Position numbers and translations under genes: made by a program. DNA of 64,000 nt. It comes from an uncultured Gammaproteobacteria bacterium (lineage in GTDB: Bacteria; Pseudomonadota; Gammaproteobacteria; JABCZS01). Shown here one piece after another: positions 3,019-36,428 of this stretch. Location of the stretch: contig CAWKDC010000003.1 in NCBI GenBank assembly GCA_963848305.1, positions 1 to 64,000 on the forward strand, given 5' to 3'. Under the pieces are notes generated by a model, which saw nothing but the letters and a program-made list of their open reading frames with translations, searched no databases and was not told where the DNA came from. Every line of letters starts with the position of its first letter. Position 1 is the stretch's first letter.

Positions 3019-3089
3019 AAGAAGTAGGTTGAATTGAACAACCACCTCGGAGGTCAAAGCTCCGGGCACTACCATTATGCAATACTTCT
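3019..3089 (-). tRNA. tRNA-Gln(TTG)
   Basis: AGAAGTA/TACTTCT acceptor; CGGAG-CT-TTG-AC-CTCCG. Confidence 0.88.
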
Positions 3090-3090
3090 A

Positions 3091-3166
3091 TGGAGGGCTT
3101 TGGCAGATATGCGCTGCCGCATGTCGGGTTTGCAATCCGATGCTTTACTGTCTTAGCTAAAAGCCC
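3091..3166 (-). tRNA. tRNA-Cys(GCA), CCA encoded, T-loop CGCATAT
   Basis: GGGCTTT/AAAGCCC acceptor; TCGGA-TT-GCA-AA-CCCGA; U73. Confidence 0.88.
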
Positions 3167-3242
3167 ATTATTTGACTTGAATGATTATTGACTTGAATTA
3201 TTTAGAGGCTTTACCTGAATAAAGTGGACCTGGCTGGAAATT

Positions 3243-3557
3243 TTGAAATTCCGTCCTTTCGATTATCGAACCATCCATAAAGTTGATAGATTTTTCCCTT
3301 CATCCAAGACCTGTTCTGGCTGCGGTTACAAGTTAGAGAAGTTGGATTTAAAGGTACGAGACTGGACTTGCCCTGCTTGCGCAACACAACATGATCGTGA
3401 TATAAATGCAGCTATCAATATATTAGTTGAAGGACAGCGAAAGCTGTCCGCTACGGGGAGTTACCTCGGAAGTAACGCTTGTGGAGAAGAAAGCTCTGGT
3501 CTCAGTGATGCGACGAAACTAACTTCGAATGAAGCAAGAAAGCAGCTGGGAACCTAA
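3243..3557 (+). pseudogene. tnpB: TnpB C-terminal fragment (Zn-ribbon plus RuvC-III), IS200/IS605-type
   Basis: VDRFFPSSKTCSGCG...WTCPACATQHDRDINAAINIL; the N-terminal HTH and RuvC-I/II are missing. Confidence 0.9.
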
Positions 3558-3560
3558 ACT
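3440..3560 (+). ncRNA. Putative TnpB omega/reRNA scaffold
   Basis: TACGGGGAGTTACCTCGGAAGTAACGCTTGTGGAGA...TCGAATGAAGCAAGAA resembles the right-end RNA region of IS605/IS1341-type tnpB. Confidence 0.55.
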
Positions 3561-3650
3561 CCGTTGCAAAATAACGAAGAACGTTCGACCGATAATCGAA
3601 AGGACGGACAAAATTTCCAGCCAGGTCACTTTATTTAGGTAAAGCCTCTA

Positions 3651-3682
3651 AATCATGTGTTCTGCCTCTGAACTAAGCCAGG
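3651..3682 (-). pseudogene. 5' half of a tRNA broken at the anticodon loop by the inverted-repeat element
   Basis: CCTGGCT-TA-GTTC-AGAGGCA-GAAC-A-CATGA-TT, then the repeat; no 3' half on the other side. Confidence 0.6.
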
Positions 3683-3685
3683 AAG

Positions 3686-3771
3686 TGGTGCTGAGGGAGG
3701 GATTCGAACCCCCGTGCTTTTTACAGACATGGTCTACAGCCACGCGCAATCAACCGCTCTGCCACCTCAGC
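3686..3771 (-). tRNA. tRNA-Tyr(GTA)
   Basis: GCTGAGG/CCTCAGC acceptor; CGTGG-CT-GTA-GA-CCATG; long V-arm; CCA. Confidence 0.92.
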
Positions 3772-3779
3772 ATTGATAA

Positions 3780-3869
3780 ACCTCGTTCCCAGGATCGAAC
3801 TGGGGTCTTGCTGTAATCTACAGCTTGCAAGGTATAAGCTTGCTGCACTAACCACTGTGCTAAACGAGG
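3780..3869 (-). tRNA. tRNA with TAT (Ile) anticodon and long variable arm
   Basis: CCTCGTT/AACGAGG acceptor; GCAAG-CT-TAT-AC-CTTGC; V-arm GCTGTA-GAT-TACAGC; CCCAG-TTCGATC-CTGGG. Confidence 0.88.
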
Positions 3870-3941
3870 TGCTCTCAGCCTGACTCGAACAGGCGTCTTC
3901 TGGATTTCAATCAGAAATGGTTCCGACTCCACTATGAGAAC
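3870..3941 (-). tRNA. tRNA-Phe(GAA)
   Basis: GTTCTCA/TGAGAGC acceptor; TCTGA-TT-GAA-AT-CCAGA; canonical T-arm. Confidence 0.82.
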
Positions 3942-3946
3942 AAATA

Positions 3947-4018
3947 TCTGGATGGTTGGTGCTGACCCAACTACTCTCGACTTCCAAAGGCGAGCGTCTA
4001 CCGTTGACTTACATCCAG
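3947..4018 (-). tRNA. tRNA-Pro(TGG), T-loop GTCAGCA
   Basis: CTGGATG/CATCCAG acceptor; TCGCC-TT-TGG-AA-GTCGA. Confidence 0.8.
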
Positions 4019-4039
4019 TCATATTTAATTGCATAAAGG

Positions 4040-4114
4040 TGGTCTTCGGTCTAAGATTTGAACTTAGGACCTTATCTTTGTAGGAGATCTGCTCTACCAC
4101 TGAGCTAACCGAAG
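4040..4114 (-). tRNA. tRNA-Val(TAC), C33
   Basis: CTTCGGT/ACCGAAG acceptor; GATCT-CC-TAC-AA-AGATA; CCA. Confidence 0.85.
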
Positions 4115-4278
4115 AAGATCTTACGCTACAATTTTGACTTGATTTGTGACTACTGACTGACATGAACTTTCTATTCCTACAATATTTTCCTGACGCACAA
4201 CAATAAAGCAGCTAATCGGCTGGCTTATTGGGCAAAAATATTGTGGATAGCTCTTGTTCATTTCAGACTCATTAAACT

Positions 4279-4302
4279 AAAAAACCGGAGGAACCCCTCC
4301 GG
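4279..4302 (-). terminator. Rho-independent terminator
   Basis: CCGGAG-GGGTTC-CTCCGG-TTTTTT on the minus strand. Confidence 0.7.
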
Positions 4303-4340
4303 GATACATCAAATACAATAACACAGGGTATTTATTCGTG

Positions 4341-4889
4341 TCAAGCCTTTCTTTTCAAATTCTGGATTTTGGCTTTCGTCTCTTTAGAGATTTTTTTCAA
4401 ATAACGCAGACTGATCTGATAGTTCGCATTCATAGCTTGCAGATAAACTTTCTTTTGTTCTGGCATAGCTTCGATCTTTTCAGTAAGATTTTGCAGGCGG
4501 GATTCAAGACATATCAACTGAGCTTGCTCAATAGCCTTCCGATTCTTTTCAAGCCAATCGGTTACGACTTTTTTGATATATGAGACTTCATCTGTAGTTA
4601 ACCATAAGACTTCATGGTGTGTATTTTTCACTCTCAAATTATGTCCATTTATTAAAGGATAAAATTGATCTTTATCCAAAGAATACATCCACTCTACTGG
4701 ATAATATTTCTTTTTTTCTATCTTAAGACCCTTTTCAAAATACAAGCTCAACTCAAAGATTTCACCAAACTTGTAAAAGTAAAGTTTGAAAGTCAGCAGA
4801 CCCCAATTAGTCTTAACAGTGTTGTTTTCGATGGCAACTTCTGAATACATTCCACTTCCAAAATAGCTTAGGCATGCCCTGTTAACCAT
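4341..4889 (-). CDS. hypothetical phage protein
   Basis: 182-aa ORF in a co-oriented cluster. Confidence 0.65.
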   Translation of the reverse strand: MVNRACLSYFGSGMYSEVAIENNTVKTNWGLLTFKLYFYKFGEIFELSLYFEKGLKIEKKKYYPVEWMYSLDKDQFYPLINGHNLRVKNTHHEVLWLTTDEVSYIKKVVTDWLEKNRKAIEQAQLICLESRLQNLTEKIEAMPEQKKVYLQAMNANYQISLRYLKKISKETKAKIQNLKRKA

Positions 4890-5254
4890 GCGAGTAATTG
4901 TTTCTCCAATAAGGTTAAATCGTCTGATCCTGCCCTTTCTAGATCCTTTCTAAAACTTGTTAAGTGATCCGCCACATCGCCTAATAAGACCAGTGATTCT
5001 ACCTCACAAATAGTACCGTTTTGAGTAAGATTGGAGTTATTAGTCACATGTTCCCTAATTTTACCAATTATGCTTGCCATCGTTTTATAACCCCTTTTAC
5101 CTAGATTGGCAGTCTGTGATCTGTTGGCATTTCCAACATTTCTGGTGGCGGATGGTCTTGATTTCGTCAAAACTGGAGAGGGTTTTGGCGGATTGCCTTC
5201 ATTAATACGCGTTTTACCTGGTTGGTTCATCCGCTGGACCTCACTTTGATTCAA
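4868..5254 (-). CDS. hypothetical phage protein (start probably 5230)
   Basis: ORF; GAGGT RBS before the internal ATG. Confidence 0.55.
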   Translation of the reverse strand: MNQSEVQRMNQPGKTRINEGNPPKPSPVLTKSRPSATRNVGNANRSQTANLGKRGYKTMASIIGKIREHVTNNSNLTQNGTICEVESLVLLGDVADHLTSFRKDLERAGSDDLTLLEKQLLAWLTGHA

Positions 5255-5444
5255 TTATAAGGTGCCTTATGTTATTTGTCAAGAGCTTACGAATCCGAAT
5301 ATCCGAAGGAGGCTCTACTTCAACATACTCATTTGTTCCAAAGCTCTTCAAAGCTGAAGTGATTCTGTTGTACTCCTTCTCGTAATCAGCTTGATTTACG
5401 AGTTCTAATTGTGCCTTGAGTTCTTCAGGCGATGGATAGATCAT
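5241..5444 (-). CDS. hypothetical phage protein
   Basis: ATGA overlap with the higA-like gene. Confidence 0.6.
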   Translation of the reverse strand: MIYPSPEELKAQLELVNQADYEKEYNRITSALKSFGTNEYVEVEPPSDIRIRKLLTNNIRHLIIESK

Positions 5445-5791
5445 ATTCTCTCTACCATTCCCTGTTCATAGACTTGATCAGACTGAAGAGAGACTGACTT
5501 GACTTCGTCTAATAGCTTCATAAAAGCTTTGTTTTGCTTTATAGATGCGAGATCATAGTTTTTTTGAAGATTCAACCAGAACTCTGCGCTCGTATTGAAA
5601 GTTTTGCCTAAACGAAAGGCGTCTTCAGGACGAATCCTTTTTTCTCCAGAGATGATTCTGCTTATCCTCAACATCGCGACGCCTGACATTTCAGACAGCT
5701 GGATTTTAGTGAGGTTGTAAGGAACCATGAATTCCTCTTTGAGGATCTCACCTGGTGTGATCGGATCTAGATAATCGGTTTCAGGTTCCAT
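5441..5791 (-). CDS. higA: HigA-family antitoxin (XRE HTH), no cognate toxin adjacent
   Basis: PITPGEILKEEFM...RISRIISGEKRI...RLGKTFNTSAEFWLNLQKNYDL. Confidence 0.9.
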   Translation of the reverse strand: MEPETDYLDPITPGEILKEEFMVPYNLTKIQLSEMSGVAMLRISRIISGEKRIRPEDAFRLGKTFNTSAEFWLNLQKNYDLASIKQNKAFMKLLDEVKSVSLQSDQVYEQGMVERI

Positions 5792-6008
5792 GTTTCCTCC
5801 TTAGGTTGATGATTCGATTAGGCTCTCCAGATTTGTTCTGATCAACACAGACTTTGATGTCACAGTAATAAGCTACTGCTTGTATTTCTTCAGACATTTT
5901 GTAGACAGCACGATGCATGAGTTCTACCTGTTTTCTTTGGCCACACTCAACACAACGTGCTGTCTGTCTGTTATTTGGTTCTGGATTGCCGTTTTCGTCA
6001 ACTAACAT
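5781..6008 (-). CDS. small Cys-containing hypothetical protein
   Basis: CVEC...CDIKVC motifs. Confidence 0.5.
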   Translation of the reverse strand: MLVDENGNPEPNNRQTARCVECGQRKQVELMHRAVYKMSEEIQAVAYYCDIKVCVDQNKSGEPNRIINLRRKHGT

Positions 6009-6036
6009 CGTCCGATTATACCAACAAATTGATTAA

Positions 6037-6709
6037 TTACTCTAGCAACTCTAAGTAGCCCTTGAAGATATCTTTAATCTTCCGAGACTGCTTACCAGTA
6101 TCGTGTTTAGTGATGACACCTTCGTAAAGATTCCAAGTAAAAGATCGATCACCTCGATTCATGCCTTTCATTTGACTGCTCTTTGAATTATAAAGTTCAT
6201 TGTTATGATCTTCTTTTGCCCGCTGAAGTAACTTAGCGGTTAGAATTCTCAGTGCTATCTTTCGATTTTGGATTTGATCTCTTTCTTGGTCACATTTGAC
6301 AGAGATGCCGGTAGGTTTATGGACGATACGACAGGCGGAATTCACAGAATTCGAGTTTTGTCCTCCGGCCTTACAATTGCTGCCCATGAAGCTGATGTCG
6401 AGGTCTTTCTCATTGATCTCACATTTCACTTCTTTAATTTCTAATAGTGAGATGGATACAATTGAAGTATGGCGACGGTTACGTTTTTCAGTTGGAGGTA
6501 TCCGAGTTATCGTATGCTTGCCAGTATGATTTTTCAGCAAACCGAGAGACTGAACAGATAAAGCAATTGAACTTTTACTTGAATAGGATATTTTGAATGG
6601 AATTTTTGTCAGGCTAAAGATATCTGCAATAAACATCAGACAGAGTCGATACCAACAACTGGCTATCTTCCCCGCCCTCACCTGCATGTATCTCGAACAA
6701 GTATTCCAT
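6037..6709 (-). CDS. RF1-like peptide chain release factor (PxT and GGQ) requiring a +1 frameshift at CTT-TAG-C (~6613-6619)
   Basis: GAGGG RBS, ATG 6709 MEYLFEIHAGEGGEDSQLL...RYL*; the +1 frame continues to RIPPTEKRNRRHTS and AGGQNSNSVNSACRIVHKPTGI. Confidence 0.88.
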
Positions 6710-6737
6710 GATCTTTATCCCTCGTTTTTGTAATTTT

Positions 6738-6820
6738 CGGAGTAATGAGAATTCGAATCTCAGACCCTTTCAGGCAGAACGTTTAGCAAACGCCATCCTC
6801 AACCAAACCGGATTTACTCC
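6738..6820 (-). tRNA. tRNA-Ser(GCT)
   Basis: GGAGTAA/TTACTCC acceptor; GGCGT-TT-GCT-AA-ACGTT; V-arm; G73; irregular acceptor-D linker. Confidence 0.78.
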
Positions 6821-6970
6821 CCAACATAATAAGCTCTGTGAAAGCCTGAGAACGCTGCATAAAGTCTATAATCCCAACTTATTGAGATATCTTTTCCAGA
6901 CCGATAGCTAGAGTTTAACATATGTCTTGTTATAAGATTAGTTTTTATAGATCTCATTTAAGTTTTGAAG

Positions 6971-7150
6971 CTACCACAATTCTTTCCTCGCTTCCCTTCT
7001 CTTCTCTGTCAAAGAGTTTTGAGCCATAGCATAAAGTAAGGATAACAAGAAGGCTACTACGAGCACCACAGCTATGCCAAGAGTGCCTAACATGGTCCAA
7101 CCGAATGCCTTAATTACGAAGGCGATTGCAGATTGTAATTCGATACTCAT
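6971..7150 (-). CDS. small membrane protein (59 aa, not in ORF track)
   Basis: AAGGA RBS; long hydrophobic run followed by a basic tail. Confidence 0.55.
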   Translation of the reverse strand: MSIELQSAIAFVIKAFGWTMLGTLGIAVVLVVAFLLSLLYAMAQNSLTEKRREARKELW

Positions 7151-7158
7151 TTTTTCCT

Positions 7159-7512
7159 TTATGAAAACATGTGTGTAACCCGAAACTTCTTCTCTTTGAT
7201 CAATTTCAATAGTTCTAAGGTGCGAGCACGATCAGTTTTAAATCTCACTCTGAAAAACTCCCAATCACTTCTGTGACGGACGATGCAAGCGATGGTCTTG
7301 CCATTCTCTTGGAGTTCCAAGTTACCTATATCTGACATCTCCAGATGGAAGAGGCATAATGCAAACGATTTTAAAGCCTCTTCCAAGGTGTCGAACTCGC
7401 ACTTTTTACGCTTCTTACCCTTGTAGTAATAACGAAGCTCATTTGTGTCAACATCAACAATACGAAATCGCTTCGCAGGCTTATTCCTTTTCTCGCTAGC
7501 CCAGATAGCCAT
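7159..7512 (-). CDS. hypothetical phage protein
   Basis: ORF in a tightly packed cluster. Confidence 0.6.
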   Translation of the reverse strand: MAIWASEKRNKPAKRFRIVDVDTNELRYYYKGKKRKKCEFDTLEEALKSFALCLFHLEMSDIGNLELQENGKTIACIVRHRSDWEFFRVRFKTDRARTLELLKLIKEKKFRVTHMFS

Positions 7513-7513
7513 C

Positions 7514-7978
7514 TCACATTATACTCAGACAGATCCAAAAAGCGAAATATTCATCTTTCCAAATACCTAGTGGTTCGAGTGTGGCTTTCAACTTAGACCT
7601 AACCTCTTCAACATAAGTAGAGTCAGCGCTTAATCCTGCTGTTTCAGCCTCCTCGACTCTTATAAAATCACCAAGGAATGCCCATTTGGGGTCCATGTAA
7701 TTGGTATTGTCAAAGCTGATGTCGTAGTCACCAATCATTCGTTGAGAATTTTCATCTTCAATCACATAAGATTGAAGATATCTGTCTGTTCCTTGTTTGA
7801 TGGCAACTTTTATTCCGCATTTTGAGCAGAAGGTCTCAGTTGTGAATTCTGGTCCACATCCACAACTTGCATAATCATAAACCTCTTCTACCTCTATCAA
7901 GTTCCAGGGTAATCGAACGCCTAACCAGGCATTATAACTACGGCTTACTCCCACTTTTCCCCCAATCTGTCGGCCCAA
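7514..7978 (-). CDS. hypothetical phage protein with Zn-ribbon-like Cys motifs
   Basis: SCGC...FCSKCG. Confidence 0.65.
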   Translation of the reverse strand: MGRQIGGKVGVSRSYNAWLGVRLPWNLIEVEEVYDYASCGCGPEFTTETFCSKCGIKVAIKQGTDRYLQSYVIEDENSQRMIGDYDISFDNTNYMDPKWAFLGDFIRVEEAETAGLSADSTYVEEVRSKLKATLEPLGIWKDEYFAFWICLSIM

Positions 7979-8301
7979 TCATCATCTTCACAAGCAGCAA
8001 CTTCATTTAAGTAATCAAGCCATTTAGTTGCTAAGACATATTCCTTTTCATCAGGATGATCCTCCCAGTGCTTAAGACCAGCTACCGCTTCTGAAAGACA
8101 CTCTACCAAGTTATAACCTGTAAAGTAATAGCTATCAATATCACCCATTTCACAGGTAACTGTGCACACGTCATCTCTTATCAGGTAAATCGGATGTGGA
8201 AGATCTCTAGACCCACATTTGTGAGGAGCGCCGGTACAAAGAGCAAGATCAATGTTACCGTTCAACTTTAGATATTCAATTAAGAGATCTTCCACATTCA
8301 T
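7945..8301 (-). CDS. hypothetical phage protein
   Basis: ORF; ATG at 8301. Confidence 0.6.
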   Translation of the reverse strand: MNVEDLLIEYLKLNGNIDLALCTGAPHKCGSRDLPHPIYLIRDDVCTVTCEMGDIDSYYFTGYNLVECLSEAVAGLKHWEDHPDEKEYVLATKWLDYLNEVAACEDDDWADRLGEKWE

Positions 8302-8303
8302 TC

Positions 8304-8858
8304 CTAGCAACTCTCTGTATCGGAGTCCTTTTTAGCCATCTTGCGCTTCATTCCACGGCTTAGAGTAGGAGCTTTGTAGATTTCTGCACGAATTTCAGCT
8401 GTTTCTGCAATCTGTTCTTCGGTAAGACTTTCCATCGATTCAGGATAAGGCAGTGAGGCATCCAAATTGTACAGACCTTTTGCATCACGTTCTGCATATG
8501 GGGTATGTCTCGCATACAATCCAGATACAGTCATATCATCGAACGGGTGTGGAACTTCACTGGCTTTCTTGCCTGTTATTTCAATCTCAAAGTTGCGCAG
8601 TTGAATCTTGCAAGCGATGCAATCACAACCACTCCATTGAAGTTTTCCATCTTCATCAACAAATACGTTGGCATCAACATGTCTTACTACGGCGTCTGGG
8701 CACAATTTTGTTGTCAATTCGTTGTGAGTGCCCATGCGATCACGTCTACAGCCTACACAAGAGCAGTCACCATCATCTAAACGGTGAGTGTAAGATGTTT
8801 TATCACCAAGACGAGCATCAACATCCATGCGGCGCTCAAGCTCATCCTTCAAACTCAT
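8304..8858 (-). CDS. Cys-rich hypothetical phage protein
   Basis: Two CxCxxC motifs; start uncertain (8858-8963). Confidence 0.6.
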   Translation of the reverse strand: MSLKDELERRMDVDARLGDKTSYTHRLDDGDCSCVGCRRDRMGTHNELTTKLCPDAVVRHVDANVFVDEDGKLQWSGCDCIACKIQLRNFEIEITGKKASEVPHPFDDMTVSGLYARHTPYAERDAKGLYNLDASLPYPESMESLTEEQIAETAEIRAEIYKAPTLSRGMKRKMAKKDSDTESC

Positions 8859-8975
8859 AAACGAAACTTTGTCGGGTATGTTCAAATCCAAATCTCCTAA
8901 ATTGTACTTCTGAATGATTAGTAGTTTAAAGCACTTTTGAGTATTATAGCAAATGTTGAACAATAGTGCTGAAAG

Positions 8976-9006
8976 AAAAAACCCTCTTCGGTGAAAAAGA
9001 GGGTTT
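8976..9006 (-). terminator. Rho-independent terminator
   Basis: AAACCCTCTT/AAGAGGGTTT stem with a T-tract on the minus strand. Confidence 0.65.
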
Positions 9007-9041
9007 AGAGATTTAGAGGCTTAGAGAATTAATCAATCCTC

Positions 9042-9251
9042 CTATTGTTGTTTTCCAATTGCGTACATAAGACTCTCAGGAACTGCGGTGGCAGATTTCC
9101 AGATGTTATCGGTAGGCACGCCTCGGTATTCCCATTGGACGAACTGAACACCATCATCCTTTTGAGATCTGATCAATCTCCATTTAGCGTTCCAGATCAA
9201 ATCTGATTCTGAGGTCTCGAAGATTATGTCAGGCTTTTTTTCTTTTGTCAT
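9042..9251 (-). CDS. hypothetical phage protein
   Basis: TGATG overlap with the upstream gene; MTKEKKPDIIF... Confidence 0.55.
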   Translation of the reverse strand: MTKEKKPDIIFETSESDLIWNAKWRLIRSQKDDGVQFVQWEYRGVPTDNIWKSATAVPESLMYAIGKQQ

Positions 9252-9805
9252 CACTTGACTTCCTTGTATTTGAATGTCTGCTTCAGATTGAGGCTGTAGG
9301 CGATGCCCGTTTTGGTGTTCATCAGACACTCGCCCGTTCGCTGATAACTCCACTTATCATCTTTGGGTGCTGGTAAGGGTAATTTTGCGATTCGATCATA
9401 CTCACAAAAGTCGCTGTCGCAAAATGGATGTGCCTTTCTATGCTCCTTGCCAAACTTTTCTTGCTTCTTAATCAAAGCTTGTTCGGCTTCTTCTTTAGTT
9501 AGCCAAACATCTTTACCAGGTTCAATTGTATGAATAGATTCTTCAATGCCGCACTCATCTTCGTAATAACGGACTTCCGTTATATATGAGATATCTTGGT
9601 TGGAGTAAGACTCAATCTTACCATCTTTAGTTTTGATATAAGTTGTCGTTAGCTTGACTACTACATGGTCTATTGTAGTTTGGCTTAAACTCAACTTGAT
9701 ATGGAAGCGATTAAAACCTGATTGCATAGAAGCGACTTTCCAAAATGTGTCGCCGGGCATATAATCTGGTTTATCCACGTAAATTCCTGAACTTAGCGAG
9801 CACAT
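9251..9805 (-). CDS. hypothetical phage protein
   Basis: 184-aa ORF; start uncertain. Confidence 0.6.
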   Translation of the reverse strand: MCSLSSGIYVDKPDYMPGDTFWKVASMQSGFNRFHIKLSLSQTTIDHVVVKLTTTYIKTKDGKIESYSNQDISYITEVRYYEDECGIEESIHTIEPGKDVWLTKEEAEQALIKKQEKFGKEHRKAHPFCDSDFCEYDRIAKLPLPAPKDDKWSYQRTGECLMNTKTGIAYSLNLKQTFKYKEVK

Positions 9806-10211
9806 CTTCTAGATTTGAGAATTCAGAATCTAGTCTGGAGACAGCTCGGTTGAAAACATTGAATAGCTCTTTATTCTGGTTGGCTGAAATCTGTGCGCTC
9901 TTCCTCTGGAAGTCGTTCAGTTCAGCATCATCAGCTTGAGCTTGAAATTCAGCAGCATTCTTGTCAAAGCTGTTACTCACTTCAGTGAAACTTGCTGAAA
10001 GGGCTGAGTGCATCTTATCGACTGACTGCTCGACGTATGTGAATTGTGTCTCAATAACAGCTGAATAGCGCTCGAACCCAGTTGCTTCATTCATCTCTTG
10101 CGAAGCTTGTTCTCGTAATACGAGCATCTCTTCTCTAGTTGGCATGGAAAGTAAGACTTTCTCTGACTCATCCAGGTTTATCTCACCTAGTAATTTTTCA
10201 GCCTTGGACAT
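9771..10211 (-). CDS. coiled-coil hypothetical protein
   Basis: GAGG RBS before MSKAEKLL; heptad-like composition. Confidence 0.6.
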   Translation of the reverse strand: MSKAEKLLGEINLDESEKVLLSMPTREEMLVLREQASQEMNEATGFERYSAVIETQFTYVEQSVDKMHSALSASFTEVSNSFDKNAAEFQAQADDAELNDFQRKSAQISANQNKELFNVFNRAVSRLDSEFSNLEDVLAKFRNLRG

Positions 10212-10281
10212 TGTAAAACCTCTAGTTTGGAGATCATAGTCTATAAGATTTTCTCTCAACTGTCTAGCTTTTTCGTGAAAT

Positions 10282-10356
10282 TGGCACTTCCAGCGGATCT
10301 CGAAACCGCATCTTATCCGTGACAGGGATAAATCCTAACCTTTAGAAGATGGAAGT
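10282..10356 (-). tRNA. tRNA-Asp(GTC)
   Basis: ACTTCCA/TGGAAGT acceptor; TATCC-CT-GTC-AC-GGATA; G73; CCA. Confidence 0.88.
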
Positions 10357-10358
10357 AT

Positions 10359-10430
10359 TGGCACACCGCCGAGAAATCGAATCCCGTCCTGGAGTTTTGG
10401 AGACTCTGTGGACACCATGTCCTGCGGTAT
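10359..10430 (-). tRNA. tRNA-Trp(CCA) with minimal D-arm
   Basis: ATACCGC/GCGGTGT acceptor; GGAC-ATGGT-GTCC; AGAGT-CT-CCA-AA-ACTCC; CCA. Confidence 0.82.
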
Positions 10431-10439
10431 ATATGTAAT

Positions 10440-10679
10440 TTAGTCTACCTCTGCTCTGAGTCTGCTCTTTTCGACGCATCTTCTCCTGAATGTTCCTGTG
10501 AAATTAACAGTTTTAGTAGTCTCTGATGTGGCAGTAATTGTGCCTTTTTCCAAGATTTTATAATCTCCATTGACTACCTCTAAGGCTGCTTGTATAAGAT
10601 CGGTATCTCTAGTCTCAGTTAAGCGATACAAGGTTTTAAAATACAAAGAGTTCACGTTTATAGTTAGGGTTAAGTCCAC
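10440..10679 (-). CDS. hypothetical protein ending LRAEVD
   Basis: GAGGT RBS with GTG start. Confidence 0.55.
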   Translation of the reverse strand: MDLTLTINVNSLYFKTLYRLTETRDTDLIQAALEVVNGDYKILEKGTITATSETTKTVNFTGTFRRRCVEKSRLRAEVD

Positions 10680-10702
10680 TTTTAATCTACCTCTGCTCTG
10701 AG
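10444..10702. repeat. 17-bp direct repeat TCTACCTCTGCTCTGAG (10444-10460, 10686-10702)
   Basis: Exact match read from the sequence. Confidence 0.85.
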
Positions 10703-10995
10703 CGATGTTTTTCCGACTACCGTTTCATAATCAATCTGCTTATCCATACCTTTCTGCATCAGACCGATATACTTGACTGAATATTTGGACGCAATTATCT
10801 CTTTCCAGTCAGGGTCTTTTGCGACTTCTTTTCTCAGGTCTTCATCTTTTATCTGACGAGGAATGTTACATCTTCTGACAAGAATTCAAGAAGCACCTTT
10901 TTTCGATGATTAAATTGAATTCTTCTCTCCAAGCGATTAGCGAGATCCTTGATTTTTTCTTTTTGTTTAGCATCTACTGTAGCGTGTATAGCCAT
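10682..10995 (-). CDS. hypothetical protein ending LRAEVD; one apparent frameshift ~10865
   Basis: MAIHATVDAKQKEKI... joins IPRQIKDEDLRKEV...SLRAEVD. Confidence 0.5.
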
Positions 10996-11060
10996 ATCTT
11001 TTAAAATACCTCGGTCTGAAGTGTAGGCTTATTATCCCACATTTGATTCGATTTAAAAAG

Positions 11061-11135
11061 TGGTGCCCCATGTCAGGTGCGAGCTGACACTTGATAGTTT
11101 CTAAGACTATTTTCTCTACATTGGAATAATGGGGC
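11061..11135 (-). tRNA. tRNA-Leu(TAG), short variable loop
   Basis: GCCCCAT/ATGGGGC acceptor; ATAGT-CT-TAG-AA-ACTAT; CCA. Confidence 0.87.
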
Positions 11136-11136
11136 T

Positions 11137-11211
11137 TGGTACTCCTAGTCAGGTTCGAGCTGACAACTACTAATTTTTGAAATTAGTTCCTCTACATTGG
11201 GATATAGGAGC
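11137..11211 (-). tRNA. tRNA-Leu(CAA), short variable loop
   Basis: GCTCCTA/TAGGAGT acceptor; CTAAT-TT-CAA-AA-ATTAG; CCA. Confidence 0.87.
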
Positions 11212-11214
11212 ATT

Positions 11215-11293
11215 TGGTCTTCGACCCCAGGCTCGAACTGGGAGGTCACAAGGGGTTTAGGCCCTCGGCATTTACCGATTCTGCTAGTCGAAG
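11215..11293 (-). tRNA. tRNA-Leu(TAA), C33, 7-nt variable loop
   Basis: CTTCGAC/GTCGAAG acceptor; GAGGG-CC-TAA-AC-CCCTT; CCA. Confidence 0.8.
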
Positions 11294-11297
11294 AAAT

Positions 11298-11395
11298 TGG
11301 AGGAAAAGATCCGATTTGAACGGATGGAACCGGAGTGTTTACCGATCCAGCACTTTTCAAGAGTGCCGCATTAAGCCGGGCTCTGCCACTTTTCC
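11298..11395 (-). tRNA. tRNA-Ser(TGA)
   Basis: GGAAAAG/CTTTTCC acceptor; GCACT-CT-TGA-AA-AGTGC; long V-arm; CCA. Confidence 0.92.
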
Positions 11396-11399
11396 ATTT

Positions 11400-11474
11400 T
11401 GGGATGCAGTACGGGTAACGATCCCGTACGACGATCTTCACAAGATCGGATGCTTCCATTACATCAACTACATC
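11400..11474 (-). tRNA. tRNA-His(GTG) with encoded G-1:C73
   Basis: G-ATGTAGT/ACTGCAT-C acceptor; CGATC-TT-GTG-AA-GATCG; CCA. Confidence 0.9.
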
Positions 11475-11569
11475 ATATAACATACCAGATTTGCAGTCAT
11501 TTAGCGTGTATGTCAGACGCTGATGCATATAACCCTCAACATCATTGGGTCTTCCAACTAGGGAAGAAA

Positions 11570-11644
11570 TGGCTCCGGGAGCCCGGCTTGAACAGGCTCT
11601 CCATGAGTAACAGTCATGTTTGCTGCCAATTACAACATCCCGGA
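11570..11644 (-). tRNA. tRNA-Asn(GTT)
   Basis: TCCGGGA/TCCCGGA acceptor; CATGA-CT-GTT-AC-TCATG; CCA. Confidence 0.9.
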
Positions 11645-11686
11645 ATAATTTGAAATCCATTGGGTGAAAATTGCTTCGGAAAAAAA

Positions 11687-11757
11687 TGCATCTGGGGAAT
11701 CTTGCAATCCCATAGTTCAGTTTAAAAGACTGGTGCCCGCTTTTAGGCGTCAGATGC
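11687..11757 (-). tRNA. tRNA-Lys(TTT), degenerate D and T loops
   Basis: GCATCTG/CAGATGC acceptor; CCAGT-CT-TTT-AA-ACTGA. Confidence 0.72.
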
Positions 11758-11760
11758 ATA

Positions 11761-11833
11761 AGCTTCTGGCCTGGAAACGATCCGACAACTCTGCGATACA
11801 AAGGCAGTATTTTTCCGATTAAACTACAGAAGC
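11761..11833 (-). tRNA. tRNA-Thr(TGT), bulged T-stem
   Basis: GCTTCTG/CAGAAGC acceptor; CTGCC-TT-TGT-AT-CGCAG. Confidence 0.72.
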
Positions 11834-11882
11834 ATATTTTGAATGTTTCAGCAGCTTTCGCATATTTAGTTTTAAAAGATTT

Positions 11883-11953
11883 TGGAGCTAGACGGTAATG
11901 CTCCGTCGTCTCGAAGGTGCAAGCTTCGTATTCTGCTTTTAAACTACAGCCCC
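11883..11953 (-). tRNA. tRNA-Ala(TGC)
   Basis: GGGGCTG/TAGCTCC acceptor with G3:U70; CGAAG-CT-TGC-AC-CTTCG. Confidence 0.9.
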
Positions 11954-12176
11954 TTGGGCTATGCGGCTGCGCTTGTAGTTCGTTTTGTCGTTTCGTAGTT
12001 TTCATGATTCCTTATTCCAGATAGTTCAGTATGTGAATTTGACAATAAATGATTCGACCACAGTGAGCGGGAATCGTTATGTCTATTCAGACTATCGAGG
12101 AGGAATAACATGATAACTACACAGTACCTTTGATATCTGGGCTCTAGGTGGCTTGCAAGCAGCGGCGCCCTGGAGC
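11950..12176 (+). ncRNA. Rod-shaped RNA with central bubble, 6S RNA-like
   Basis: Nested pairings across ~225 nt with G-U pairs on the + strand; the 3' motif ACCTTTGA...GGGCTC...GCGGCG resembles 6S. Confidence 0.6.
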
Positions 12177-12189
12177 AACTATTTAAAAA

Positions 12190-12263
12190 TGGAGCGGGAC
12201 AAGAGACTCAAACTCTTATCTTTTGCTTGGAAGGCAAAGGCACAATCCTTATACCAGTCCCGC
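12190..12263 (-). tRNA. tRNA-Gly(TCC)
   Basis: GCGGGAC/GTCCCGC acceptor; TTTGC-CT-TCC-AA-GCAAA; U73; CCA. Confidence 0.92.
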
Positions 12264-12307
12264 GTATGTCGCTCACTTATAATACCCTGAGCAAAATAGG
12301 GATGAAT

Positions 12308-12383
12308 TGGTCGTGTGTACCAGATTTGAACTGGTGTTCACGAGGTGAAAGCCCGTTTTCCTTGACCACTAGAAGAACACACG
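12308..12383 (-). tRNA. tRNA-Glu(TTC)
   Basis: CGTGTGT/ACACACG acceptor; ACGGG-CT-TTC-AC-CTCGT; CCA. Confidence 0.9.
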
Positions 12384-33947: not shown

Positions 33948-34760
33948 ATGTCCCATATTACATGGATTATTCCCGACCTCCCCATGCTTGATAAGCATAC
34001 CACAGATTTTCCGCAGGATATTCCAACTGCACTTTTTCATCATTTGGGCGGTGAAGGGGAGTTGCCTCGCGCCGCGCTGCTTGCGTTGCACCATGAATTG
34101 CCGCCAGCGAATGCATGGGTGCTGTGTGAACCGGTTGAATGCATGGCATCGAAAAAGGATGTTGTTTGCCTGGGCAACGCACATCTGACCGTCACCCTGG
34201 ACACGGCGCGAGCATGGGTCGCCAAATTCAATGACTATTGGGCAGGGACCGGCAGGGTGATGTATCTCATTTCACCTTTGCAATGGCTATTGGCCTTGCC
34301 TGAACCGCTGTCATATCATGCACAGCCCCTGCGTAACATTCTGAATCAACCCATTCCCAAACAATTGCCCCTGTTGTTTTCAGAAGCGCAAATGCTGATG
34401 CAAGGTAATACACTCAATGCATTGTGGTTGTCGGGTGAAGGCGAATTACCCGTGTTTGATAAAAGACCAGACTTACATGTCATGACCAACCATCTTGAAG
34501 CGATAGCGCTCACACGCAGTGTGATGGGACATGTGGTGCCATTTTGTCAAACCTTCGACGATTTTTGGACGCATTATGGTAAGAGTCAAGATGAATGGAT
34601 CATCGCATTGTCCGCTGAAAGTTTGGGCGCAAAAGATGAAGATGAATATGTGTCGATGTTTGAACAACATTGGTTGAAAAGTTATTTGATGCATGCGAAA
34701 ATGCCGCATGACAGAAATGATTCGAAGACGCGATCCACAAACACCGCCACTGACGGATAG
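33948..34760 (+). CDS. conserved protein upstream of recJ (phosphoglycerate-mutase-like family)
   Basis: WVLCEPV, LFSEAQMLM, NALWLSGEG; synteny. Confidence 0.6.
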   Translation: MSHITWIIPDLPMLDKHTTDFPQDIPTALFHHLGGEGELPRAALLALHHELPPANAWVLCEPVECMASKKDVVCLGNAHLTVTLDTARAWVAKFNDYWAGTGRVMYLISPLQWLLALPEPLSYHAQPLRNILNQPIPKQLPLLFSEAQMLMQGNTLNALWLSGEGELPVFDKRPDLHVMTNHLEAIALTRSVMGHVVPFCQTFDDFWTHYGKSQDEWIIALSAESLGAKDEDEYVSMFEQHWLKSYLMHAKMPHDRNDSKTRSTNTATDG

Positions 34761-36428
34761 CACACTGCCGCCATTTCTTGCGCGCATTTATGCAAACCGT
34801 GGCATCACGCAGGCCAAAGAATTATCTTGTTCGTTGAATGAATTGTTGCCGTACGATACATTGAAAGGCATTGAAGCAGCCGTTGATATGCTCGCGAACA
34901 TGTTGATTGCACAAAAACGTTTTCTCATCATTGGTGATTTCGACGCTGACGGTGCAACGGCCACGGCTGTTGCTGTGCGCGCGTTGCGCATGTTGGGCGC
35001 AAAACAAGTTGATTTTTTGGTTCCCAATCGTTTTGAATATGGCTACGGTTTAACACCTGAGATTGTTGTCGAAGCACATAAACGTTCACCCGATGTGATC
35101 ATCACCGTAGACAATGGTATTTCCAGCATTGAAGGCGTGGCTTGCGCAAACGCATTGGGTATTCCAGTGGTGGTGACGGATCACCATTTGGCAGGGCGCG
35201 TGCTACCGGATGCGGCTGCGATGGTTAACCCGAATCAACCGGGGTGTGATTTTTCAAGTAAAGCATTGGCCGGTGTCGGCGTGATTTTTTATGTGATGCT
35301 TGCGCTGCGCGCGCGTTTGCGTGCGATGCATTTTTTTGAATCATCAGCACCGAATCTCGCATCGCTACTCGACATTGTTGCATTGGGTACGGTGGCCGAT
35401 CTCGTTCCCCTCGATCACAACAACCGTGTGTTGGTGCGCCAGGGCTTGATGCGCATGCGGCAGGGCGTTGCTTGCCCTGGCATTCAAGCGTTGCTCGAAG
35501 TCGCGCAGCGTGATCCTGCTCGTGTGCAGGCGCAAGACATGGGTTTTGCCTTGGCCCGCGTCTGAATGCGGCTGGGCGTCTTGAAGACATGGCGATTGGC
35601 ATTCAATGTTTACTGAGCGATTCGATAGAAGCGGCGCGTCCACTGGCGGCACAGCTGGATGCTCTGAATGCGGAGCGCAAATCTATTGAAGGGGAAATGC
35701 AAACACAAGCCGACGATCTCATGCGCCGTTTGCCAGATGAACACAAAATATTGCCGCGTGGATTGGCACTGTATGAACCGACATGGCACATGGGAGTTGT
35801 GGGCATTCTCGCGTCGCGCGTGAAAGAAAAATACCACCGTCCGGTGATTTGTTTTGCGCAGGGAGATGAGGGTCAGCTGAAAGGTTCTGCACGTTCTGTG
35901 TCAGGTGTGCATATCCGTGATGTGCTCGATCGTATCTCAACGCAGCATCCGGGCATCATCATCAAATTTGGTGGGCATGCGATGGCCGCGGGTTTGACGA
36001 TTGTGGCAGATCAATACGCGTTGTTTGTTTCATTATTTGCTGAAACAGTGAGTGAATTTCTGAAGGAAGAAGATTGCTTAGGCATTCATTGGAGTGATGG
36101 TGAATTGGCTGCACATGAGATTTCTCGTGAAACAGCTTACCTGCTTGATGCAGCTGGGCCATTCGGGGCGCAGTTTCCACCACCCATGTTTGATAATGTC
36201 TTTTCTGTCGTTTCCCGTCAACCCATGGGTGGGGATAAACACATGCGCTATCGGCTCGCTTTGCCGGAGGGTCGGGCAGTTGAAGCTGTTCATTTCAATG
36301 CCTCCCCAGAGACCTGGGCAGAGCCGGGTCAGGCTGTCCGACTTGCCTATTCAATCGATTTGAACTATTTCAGGGGAGAGGAGCGGCTGCAGTTGAAAAT
36401 CAATTACATAGATGCTCAAAATGCCTGA
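34708..36428 (+). CDS. recJ: ssDNA exonuclease RecJ, frameshift ~35555
   Basis: GDFDADG, TVDNG, TDHH, LGTVAD, GSARS, GGHAMAAG. Confidence 0.96.

Follow-up and report, generated by a model that had tools for sequence, protein, structure and literature searches.

A candidate +1 frameshift site at CUU UAG C in a domain-1-less RF1-like gene on a tRNA-rich island of an uncultured gammaproteobacterium

The stretch of DNA analysed here, hereafter the window, comprises 64 kb from the start of contig C3 (243,006 bp), which belongs to a four-contig, 1.89-Mb assembly of an uncultured gammaproteobacterium. On the minus strand of the window, between positions 6709 and 6037, lies a gene for a protein resembling peptide chain release factor 1 (RF1). 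Its coding sequence is divided over two reading frames that meet at TAT CTT TAG C, a sequence much like the one at which prfB, the gene of release factor 2 (RF2), undergoes its +1 frameshift. We consider it probable that this site likewise directs a programmed +1 ribosomal frameshift, here gated by the decoding of UAG, which would yield a 223-amino-acid (aa) RF1-like factor that lacks domain 1. The further idea that the factor truly regulates its own synthesis, as part of such a programmed shift, is held only tentatively, and we would give it less than an even chance.

The gene is preceded by a Shine-Dalgarno (SD) sequence, GAGGG (6719..6723, minus strand), which was read from the sequence 9 nucleotides (nt) before the ATG at 6709, and CCTCC is present in the 3′ tail of the host 16S rRNA. 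From this ATG a 0-frame segment of 31 codons (6617..6709, minus strand; MEYLFEIHAGEGGEDSQLLVSTLSDVYCRYL) encodes the release-factor motif EIHAGEGGEDS and corresponds, in release-factor domain 2, to strand 1 and the greater part of the first helix. The segment ends in the shift cassette (6613..6622, minus strand), made up of the Tyr codon TAT (6622-6620), the slippery CTT-T with CTT at 6619-6617, the RF1-specific stop TAG (6616-6614) and a C (6613). The +1-frame segment that follows (6037..6615, minus strand) has 192 codons and a TAA at 6039-6037, opens with SLTKIPFK and ends with LELLE. It holds the Pfam domains PCRF and RF-1 and the motifs PPT (6498-6490, residues 71-73), RRHTS and GGQ (6366-6358, residues 115-117), and it includes RIPPTEKRNRRHTS and KAGGQ. 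Readthrough of the TAG in the 0 frame would meet a TAA twelve codons on. The open reading frame (ORF) listed for this region, 6037-6687, has its initial ATG in the +1 frame, and its out-of-frame head of 24 codons (6616..6687, minus strand; MQVRAGKIASCWYRLCLMFIADIF) has no release-factor homology and is not part of the protein.

These features agree with an earlier note, which had reported the SD-linked ATG at 6709, the EIHAGEGGEDS motif and the stop at CTT-TAG, all of which are present. It had also proposed that a slip at CTT enters the frame carrying PPT and GGQ, and the +1 read is indeed open to the TAA at 6037; its remark that the listed start at 6687 is in the wrong frame is borne out by the head just described. 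The 10-mer TAT CTT TAG C occurs twice in the 1.89-Mb assembly when both strands are counted, and is thus not rare by itself. Its position exactly where the release-factor homology switches frame exceeds chance.

The joined read, in which TAGC was taken as one step (+1), gives the 223-aa protein P0001. Against NCBIfam, the RF1 model matched P0001 with an E value of 3.2e-46 and 158 bits, residues 4-220 aligning in a single stretch with positions 107-332 of the 347 of the profile; the RF2, PrfH and ArfB models scored 131, 60.5 and 25 bits, respectively. P0001 lies below the curated cut-off of every NCBIfam model scored, including those of RF1 (NF001859 / TIGR00019, 158 bits against a cut-off of 400 and 149 against 423) and of PrfH (TIGR03072, 60.5 bits against 166.65); RF1 domains 2-4 are covered and domain 1 is missing. 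Among PDB sequences the best match was Thermotoga RF1 (108 bits), with an alignment that is gapless across the junction (...dvycrylsltk...), while the best RF2 and PrfH matches had 88.6 and 46.6 bits. Pfam recognized the PCRF and RF-1 domains in the joined protein. On sequence grounds the predicted product is RF1-like, as RF1 outscores RF2, PrfH and ArfB.

The same picture was obtained for the fold. An AlphaFold2 model of P0001, built on a 44-row alignment, had a mean predicted local distance difference test score (pLDDT) of 93.6 and a predicted template modelling score (pTM) of 0.80. Foldseek placed the model on ribosome-bound E. coli RF1 with a template modelling (TM) score of 0.92 and a root mean square deviation of 1.9 Å; the best RF2 reached 0.87 and PrfH 0.66. 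In the model, residues 2-9 form a strand and residues 14-33 a helix that spans the junction between residues 31 and 32, which indicates that the 31 residues encoded in the 0 frame are integral to the fold. In RF1, it is the start (tip) of this first helix that recognizes the first stop-codon base. A normal prfA is present on contig C1 (host RF1 at C1:1,425,092-1,425,772, with a PET motif), so the gene in the window is not the RF1 gene of the cell; it is a paralogue without domain 1. The genomes of 60 relatives of the host, one of them flagged as unpublished, contain no release factors of this kind other than ordinary RF1 and RF2.

A search of 5.8 billion proteins for homologues retrieved P0003 (75% identity), P0004 (69%), P0006 (56%), P0007 (51%) and P0061 (49%) as the closest clusters, which are metagenomic and come from other sources (JGI, Logan, ENA). 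The close homologues span about 73-87% of P0001 and none of them covers the first ~30 residues; distant relatives (30-40% identity) span 97-100% of P0001 and are uninterrupted. The called N-termini of the five clusters are not release-factor-like and resemble the out-of-frame head of the window ORF. All five join the homologous frame at [I/T]-F-S, the junctions reading VNIF-S, RNTF-S, GSIF-S, RFIF-S and VIIF-S, as compared with ADIF-S in the window. A further cluster, P0005, was uninformative for the junction because its start lies further downstream. When the junctions were back-translated one base to the left, [Tyr/His]-[Leu/Ile/Phe]-stop was allowed in 5/5. TAG is the only stop that fits, since Phe is followed by Ser, where a TGA would give Asp or Glu and a TAA would give Asn or Lys. 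The relatives appear to keep the same break. Uninterrupted homologues had been named in the earlier note as what would speak against a frameshift; at the protein level the same junction is present in all five informative close relatives, and for these the objection fails.

We also counted, for each of these heads, the positions at which the 0-frame residues of the window are allowed, and compared the counts with those of 5000 shuffled heads. The head of P0004 allowed 13/17 positions and that of P0003 5/6, values reached by 0/5000 and 26/5000 shuffles, respectively. For P0007, 13/20 positions were allowed (0/5000 shuffles) with the cassette placed three codons upstream, at the invariant Tyr27, an offset that was chosen post hoc. 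The heads of P0006 and P0061 allowed 3/7 and 4/9 positions, counts that 1531/5000 and 804/5000 shuffles also reached. Residues next to the junction were compared with those of 43 uninterrupted relatives. Position 31 of these is Ala in 34 and Leu in none, and position 32 is Ser in only three, which indicates that the Leu-Ser pair goes with the cassette.

To place these proteins we used a tree of 89 rows, calculated with a "quick" method and supported by the Shimodaira-Hasegawa-like approximate likelihood ratio test (SH-aLRT) only. Its rows were P0001 and its kin, seven members in all and with their out-of-frame heads removed, 55 of 64 short relatives sampled at random, 25 random long relatives, the host RF1 and, as outgroup, the host RF2 from its shift site onward. 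The seven group together in a single clade (SH-aLRT 96), of which P0061 is the first branch. Its sister comprises 41 short PPT proteins (joint support 96), the clade thus lying apart from canonical RF1, and the other 14 short rows were placed elsewhere in the tree. This sister group is a large family of domain-1-less PPT proteins of ~220 aa, with members on contigs of up to 586 kb. The end branches within the clade are as long as 1.13 changes per column, yet its long ORFs have stayed open and 48 columns of the alignment show no variation, PPTE, RRHTS, GG and HKPxG among them. Open ORFs and so many invariant columns despite long branches indicate that the gene is under purifying selection while its frame break is maintained.

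The host prfB (C1 about 377,590, minus strand) carries GGGGG TAT CTT TGA C, where the frame changes in the canonical way, and a tRNA-Leu(GAG) gene is present; host ribosomes hence already slip on CUU-U. We propose that translation of the RF1-like gene would start at the ATG at 6709 and that, at codon 31, peptidyl-tRNA-Leu would be positioned on CUU with UAG in the A site. Fast decoding of UAG, either by RF1-type termination or by an amber suppressor tRNA encoded on the same island (see below), would give a short dead-end peptide, since a chain continued by the suppressor would end at the TAA 12 codons on. If UAG were decoded slowly, the tRNA would re-pair on UUU, AGC (Ser) would enter the A site and the full factor would be made. 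The output of full factor would consequently fall as the UAG-decoding capacity of the cell rises, much as RF2 output does at the CUU UGA C of prfB. The analysis shows the anatomy of the sequence, an unbroken fold and homology over the junction and, at the protein level, signs that relatives retain it; ribosomal shifting at the cassette, its efficiency and the reading of UAG by the product itself are what we infer from the sequence.

Several observations weigh against this proposal. An internal SD stimulates shifting at prfB; a prfB-like internal SD is absent here, none of six SD-like tetramers being present in the 41 nt upstream of the site, as the earlier note had already pointed out. Also, a stable RNA structure around the site was not found (folding of 6530-6660, z = +1.06). 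As an SD-like stimulator and a notable RNA structure are both absent, the efficiency of shifting may be low. Levels of about 6% in Mycobacterium smegmatis, and similarly low ones in Flavobacterium johnsoniae, a rare user of SD sequences, are given for prfB-type shifting in the available part of Prince et al. 2025 (PMC12421855). With regard to the relatives, the heads of P0006 and P0061 do no better than shuffles, and that of P0007 fits only with the displaced cassette. DNA of the close homologues was not found in any collection searched, so that the site has one nucleotide sequence and its conservation rests on protein heads, not on codons. The points that concern the quality of the assembly are presented below, together with the possibility of an indel.

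Other searches gave the following results. The related-locus search, run with P0001, with P0003 and with an alignment (A2), revealed no relative in viral, metagenome or genome contigs. A degenerate DNA pattern that combined the cassette with a GKHT motif matched 24 viral and 119 genome loci, which we rejected as chance hits because tblastn with P0001 on the fetched loci gave zero release-factor-like matches. The tblastn searches of plasmids and phages yielded 106 and 57 records, respectively, every one of them below 60% identity. A search restricted to residues 1-40, aimed at separately called N-terminal fragments, gave no candidate.

The part of the proposal that concerns self-regulation depends on what the factor does at UAG. 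Residue 68, located three residues before PPT, is Thr in 6/7 clade members and Gln in 42/43 uninterrupted relatives, and Val occupies the corresponding site of the host RF2. We take the Gln at this position to be the third-base reader of RF1, which accepts G or A. In addition, GGA replaces GGQ in 4/7 clade members (P0003, P0004, P0005 and P0007), and GGQ is kept in all 43 other aligned relatives. GGA mutants of release factors keep part of their release activity. Thr68 and GGA raise the possibility that the product is unlike RF1 at UAG or in release; that is, it may not read UAG, or may not release peptides as RF1 does, which would argue against self-regulation. GGM is found at the same place in P0070 and P0092; the GGA and GGM proteins are short, RF1-like and have the KAGG insertion in common.

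These residues lead to the alternative that survives best, namely that the shift is real but not self-regulatory, the site either reporting host RF1 activity and the level of suppressor tRNA or setting a low, fixed output. In agreement with this view, an amber suppressor tRNA gene is located on the same island, 11 kb away, and both Thr68, where RF2 has Val, and our assumption on the role of Gln at that position fit a factor that no longer serves UAG. On the other side, PPT, RRHTS and the N-terminal GEGGED element are retained, the apparent conservation of TAG instead of TAA or TGA is what self-regulation predicts, and P0061, the first-branching member, keeps Gln at position 68 and seems to have the cassette. 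We regard a real shift without self-regulation as possible, though unlikely. As to the earlier interpretation as a whole, an RF1-like gene in which a +1 step at a prfB-like CTT-T restores a continuous fold has stood up, and the claim that the stop is the factor's own cognate one, with the autoregulation that this implies, stays tentative.

A more specific variant would be a two-part switch of UAG, composed of the amber suppressor tRNA and an RF1-derived factor that ends translation at UAA and not at UAG, the cassette then gauging host RF1. In such a switch the change of the third-base reader from Gln to Thr would resemble the Val of RF2, and the cassette would not measure the level of the factor itself. 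We think this variant distinctly improbable. If it were true, a mobile element could tune UAG readthrough in a host with the standard code. The prfB frameshift would then have its first natural counterpart in the RF1 class, one that serves another regulatory purpose.

We next consider whether the break is an artefact of assembly or sequencing. Under this explanation the gene is an ordinary, uninterrupted short RF1-like gene with the true sequence TAT CTT AGC, and true reads at 6622-6613 would show TATCTTAGC. The earlier note had cautioned that the window is indel-prone, and rightly so, since recJ (34693-36428) is split into two frames with a break near 35,560, the first part encoding DHH and the second DHHA1 and OB. 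The break corresponds to the apparent loss of one G in a G run (...TTGGCCCGCG...), after which GPRLNAAGRL resumes in another frame. It is either an assembly indel or a pseudogene, and it bears on the trust that can be placed in single-base runs of this assembly. With at least one other apparent 1-nt indel present in a housekeeping gene, and with the extra base at the cassette inside a run of three T, that T taken alone could be an error; the uninterrupted state of relatives at 30-40% identity points the same way. Against an indel argue the recurrence of the same out-of-frame head and F-S junction in five clusters from other assemblies and the fact that a random event would rarely put a stop exactly at the frame switch or recreate the prfB heptamer. 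Moreover, with Leu31 in 0/43 uninterrupted relatives, an error-free TAT CTT AGC would still encode an odd Leu.

Public sequencing runs were compared with the stretch by means of short contigs. Three runs contain part of it, none of which is recorded as RNA. One contig of 151 nt, from a peat metagenome run, is identical to 6512-6662 (zero differences) and so spans the shift site, a point in favour of a genuine break. This sole matching contig may derive from the very sample behind the assembly, and because of this possible origin its support is weak. A second piece, which differed at 6 of 42 nt and had dissimilar flanks, was set aside as an unrelated match. Taking these data together, the break is probably not an error, and we hold an indel to be very unlikely.

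Equally implausible in our judgement is that the locus makes two products, a 31-codon leader peptide and a protein begun in the +1 frame through internal initiation or restart after the TAG. Gene callers read the locus in this way, and the +1 frame offers two ATGs, one at 6687 and another seven codons ahead of the junction. But a start in the +1 frame is not conserved, as the distance from the first Met to the junction varies among members between 7 and 21 codons; there is no start codon at the TAG and no SD before 6687. Furthermore, in the model the first 31 residues provide a strand and a helix integral to the fold, including the tip that we assume to read the first stop-codon base, and the 0-frame head is conserved in relatives. 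Hardest to uphold is a decaying gene, in which one ancestral frameshift mutation turned the clade into pseudogenes, for although it would account for why Gln68 and the glutamine of GGQ, two residues otherwise conserved in the family, are lost in a clade as small as 7 clusters among several thousand relatives, neutral decay would have brought stops and indels, and instead the +1 ORFs of ~190 codons are open in six members with full-length calls at 25-50% protein divergence, the 48 columns named above are invariant and P0004 and P0007 also conserve the 0-frame head.

The RF1-like gene is embedded in the first ~21 kb of the contig, where the guanine-plus-cytosine (GC) content is 0.39-0.43 as compared with 0.46-0.50 beyond. 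We call this stretch a tRNA-rich island of the mobile-element type that is cut by the end of the contig. Most of its ORFs have no family match; those that do include a HigA-like helix-turn-helix (HTH) protein, a transposase fragment and a DJ-1/PfpI protein. ARAGORN predicted 15 tRNA genes in the island and Rfam two more (3094-3166 and 11883-11953), all of them on the minus strand, and an Rfam scan of 1-21,000 found tRNAs only. Two blocks of tRNA genes predicted by ARAGORN, 3019-4114 and 10282-12383 (minus strand, within 3019..12383), flank the RF1-like gene. The amber suppressor tRNA, with anticodon CUA, is encoded at 17572..17647 (minus strand; ARAGORN). With 65.3 bits it has the best Rfam tRNA score in 1-21,000, and it is the only tRNA with a stop anticodon among the 56 of the assembly. 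Like the RF1-like gene it lies within the low-GC stretch from 1 to ~21 kb, and the two may be functionally linked. ARAGORN also reported a tRNA-Cys with the unusual anticodon ACA (4040-4114) and a tRNA-Ile(TAT) of 92 nt (3779-3870), which is long for class I; both match the Rfam tRNA model as well.

Housekeeping genes (pepP-like, thrS, accA, ychF and recJ) are found from about 22 kb on. PHROGs detected no phage hallmark genes in 1-32 kb, and for this reason the island is not called a prophage. Recoding of TAG, TGA or TAA on C3 was rejected, the coding fraction being 0.904 with code 11 and 0.901 with TAG as sense; ORF pairs that readthrough would join are no commoner on C3 than on C1, and 8/41 island ORFs end in TAG. 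An amber suppressor is thus present although TAG recoding is not seen on the contig. The end of C3 and the start of C4 (300 bases each) have 74 identical 25-mers in common, in the same orientation, and the two contigs probably abut or overlap. Contig C2 was considered as the remainder of the island and rejected because it is chromosomal (gdh, pepN, obg and the L21 gene). Just downstream of the RF1-like gene, on the minus strand at 5441-5791 and 5781-6008, we observed a 75-aa Cys-rich ORF, which has no family match, and a homologue of HigA-like HTH antitoxins (phrog_1381, E 2.4e-23). These two could form a toxin-antitoxin-like pair.

The frameshift of prfB, the textbook example of how a translation factor gauges its own activity, is the known system closest to the one proposed here. 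Both sites are situated early in the gene of a class-I release factor and consist of a Tyr codon, a slippery CTT-T, a premature class-specific stop and a C after it. They differ in that the stop is TAG in the island gene instead of TGA, that the island site has no SD-like element 3 nt upstream, that it falls at codon 32, inside the first domain-2 helix, and not at codon 26 in domain 1, and that the junction is Leu-Ser instead of Leu-Asp. The papers cited from here on were available in part, and what is said of them applies to those parts. Prince et al. 2025 (PMC12421855) describe the same prfB elements, and TAG was present in 0/8,164 of their prfB motifs. According to the available text, programmed frameshifting is not known in prfA, of which pseudogenes were found in 34 of more than 12,000 genomes with no common site. 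According to the part seen of Atkins et al. 2016 (PMC5009743), no RF2 gene is known with an early in-frame stop that is read through in the same frame, and a UAG/RF1 counterpart is likewise unknown. Our own literature search, which covered papers apart from their supplements, retrieved neither a description of a shift at CUU UAG in any gene of the RF1 class nor one of domain-1-less RF1-type phage proteins; on domain-1-less release factors in phages it yielded just the PrfH paper (Baranov et al. 2006, PMC1586002) and an unrelated one.

With bacterial RF1 (prfA) the island factor shares its best sequence and fold matches, a PxT-type motif (PPT), RRHTS and GGQ. It differs from RF1 by the lack of domain 1, by a score of 158 bits against a 400-bit cut-off, by Thr for Gln three residues before PxT and by one extra residue before GG (KAGG). 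PrfH (RF-H), a known bacterial release-factor homologue, is similar in length and also misses domain 1. P0001 matches it weakly (60.5 bits in NCBIfam, 46.6 bits in PDB, TM 0.66 vs 0.92 for RF1), and the RtcB domain of its partner was not found in Pfam searches of the neighbouring ORFs scanned.

Homologues at 32-35% identity are encoded on uncultured phage records of 595-735 kb, and RF1 and RF2 are listed among huge-phage genes (Al-Shayeb et al. 2020). A 642-kb uncultured phage, LR756502.1, has a domain-1-less RF1-like gene (874-1560 within the locus 106352-108802) that begins with MKEIIIEIRAAEGG, at the same place as the window gene. It contains an in-frame TGA at a Trp position of its relatives, which suggests that TGA is recoded to Trp in this phage. 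As in the phage modules that change the genetic code, a suppressor tRNA lies near a release-factor gene (Borges et al. preprint). Those modules differ in that TAG recoding is reported there together with RF2, whereas here an amber suppressor accompanies an RF1-type factor and neither the island nor the contig is stop-recoded. In their available parts, Borges et al. (preprint) and Al-Shayeb et al. (2020) describe phage-borne RF1 and RF2 without mention of frameshifting. The domain-1-less RF1 proteins of phage type raise the matter of their role in cells that already have RF1 and RF2. A release factor of a giant amoeba virus is of the eukaryote type, with a different mechanism and host domain. 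It resembles the present case in being virus-borne and in needing recoding for its expression, in that instance both readthrough and frameshifting (Atkins et al. 2016, PMC5009743).

Should a CUU UAG C shift prove to be conserved in RF1-class genes, the solution known from prfB would have arisen also with the other class-specific stop, in a different protein domain, without an SD stimulator and on a mobile element. Nature would in that case have provided a means to tell the essential prfB elements from the others, and the cassette itself could be used as a small sensor that responds to RF1 activity or to amber suppression. Compared with the systems above, the prfB-type shift itself is known; what would be new is prfB logic applied to the other release-factor class, on a mobile element and without an SD stimulator.

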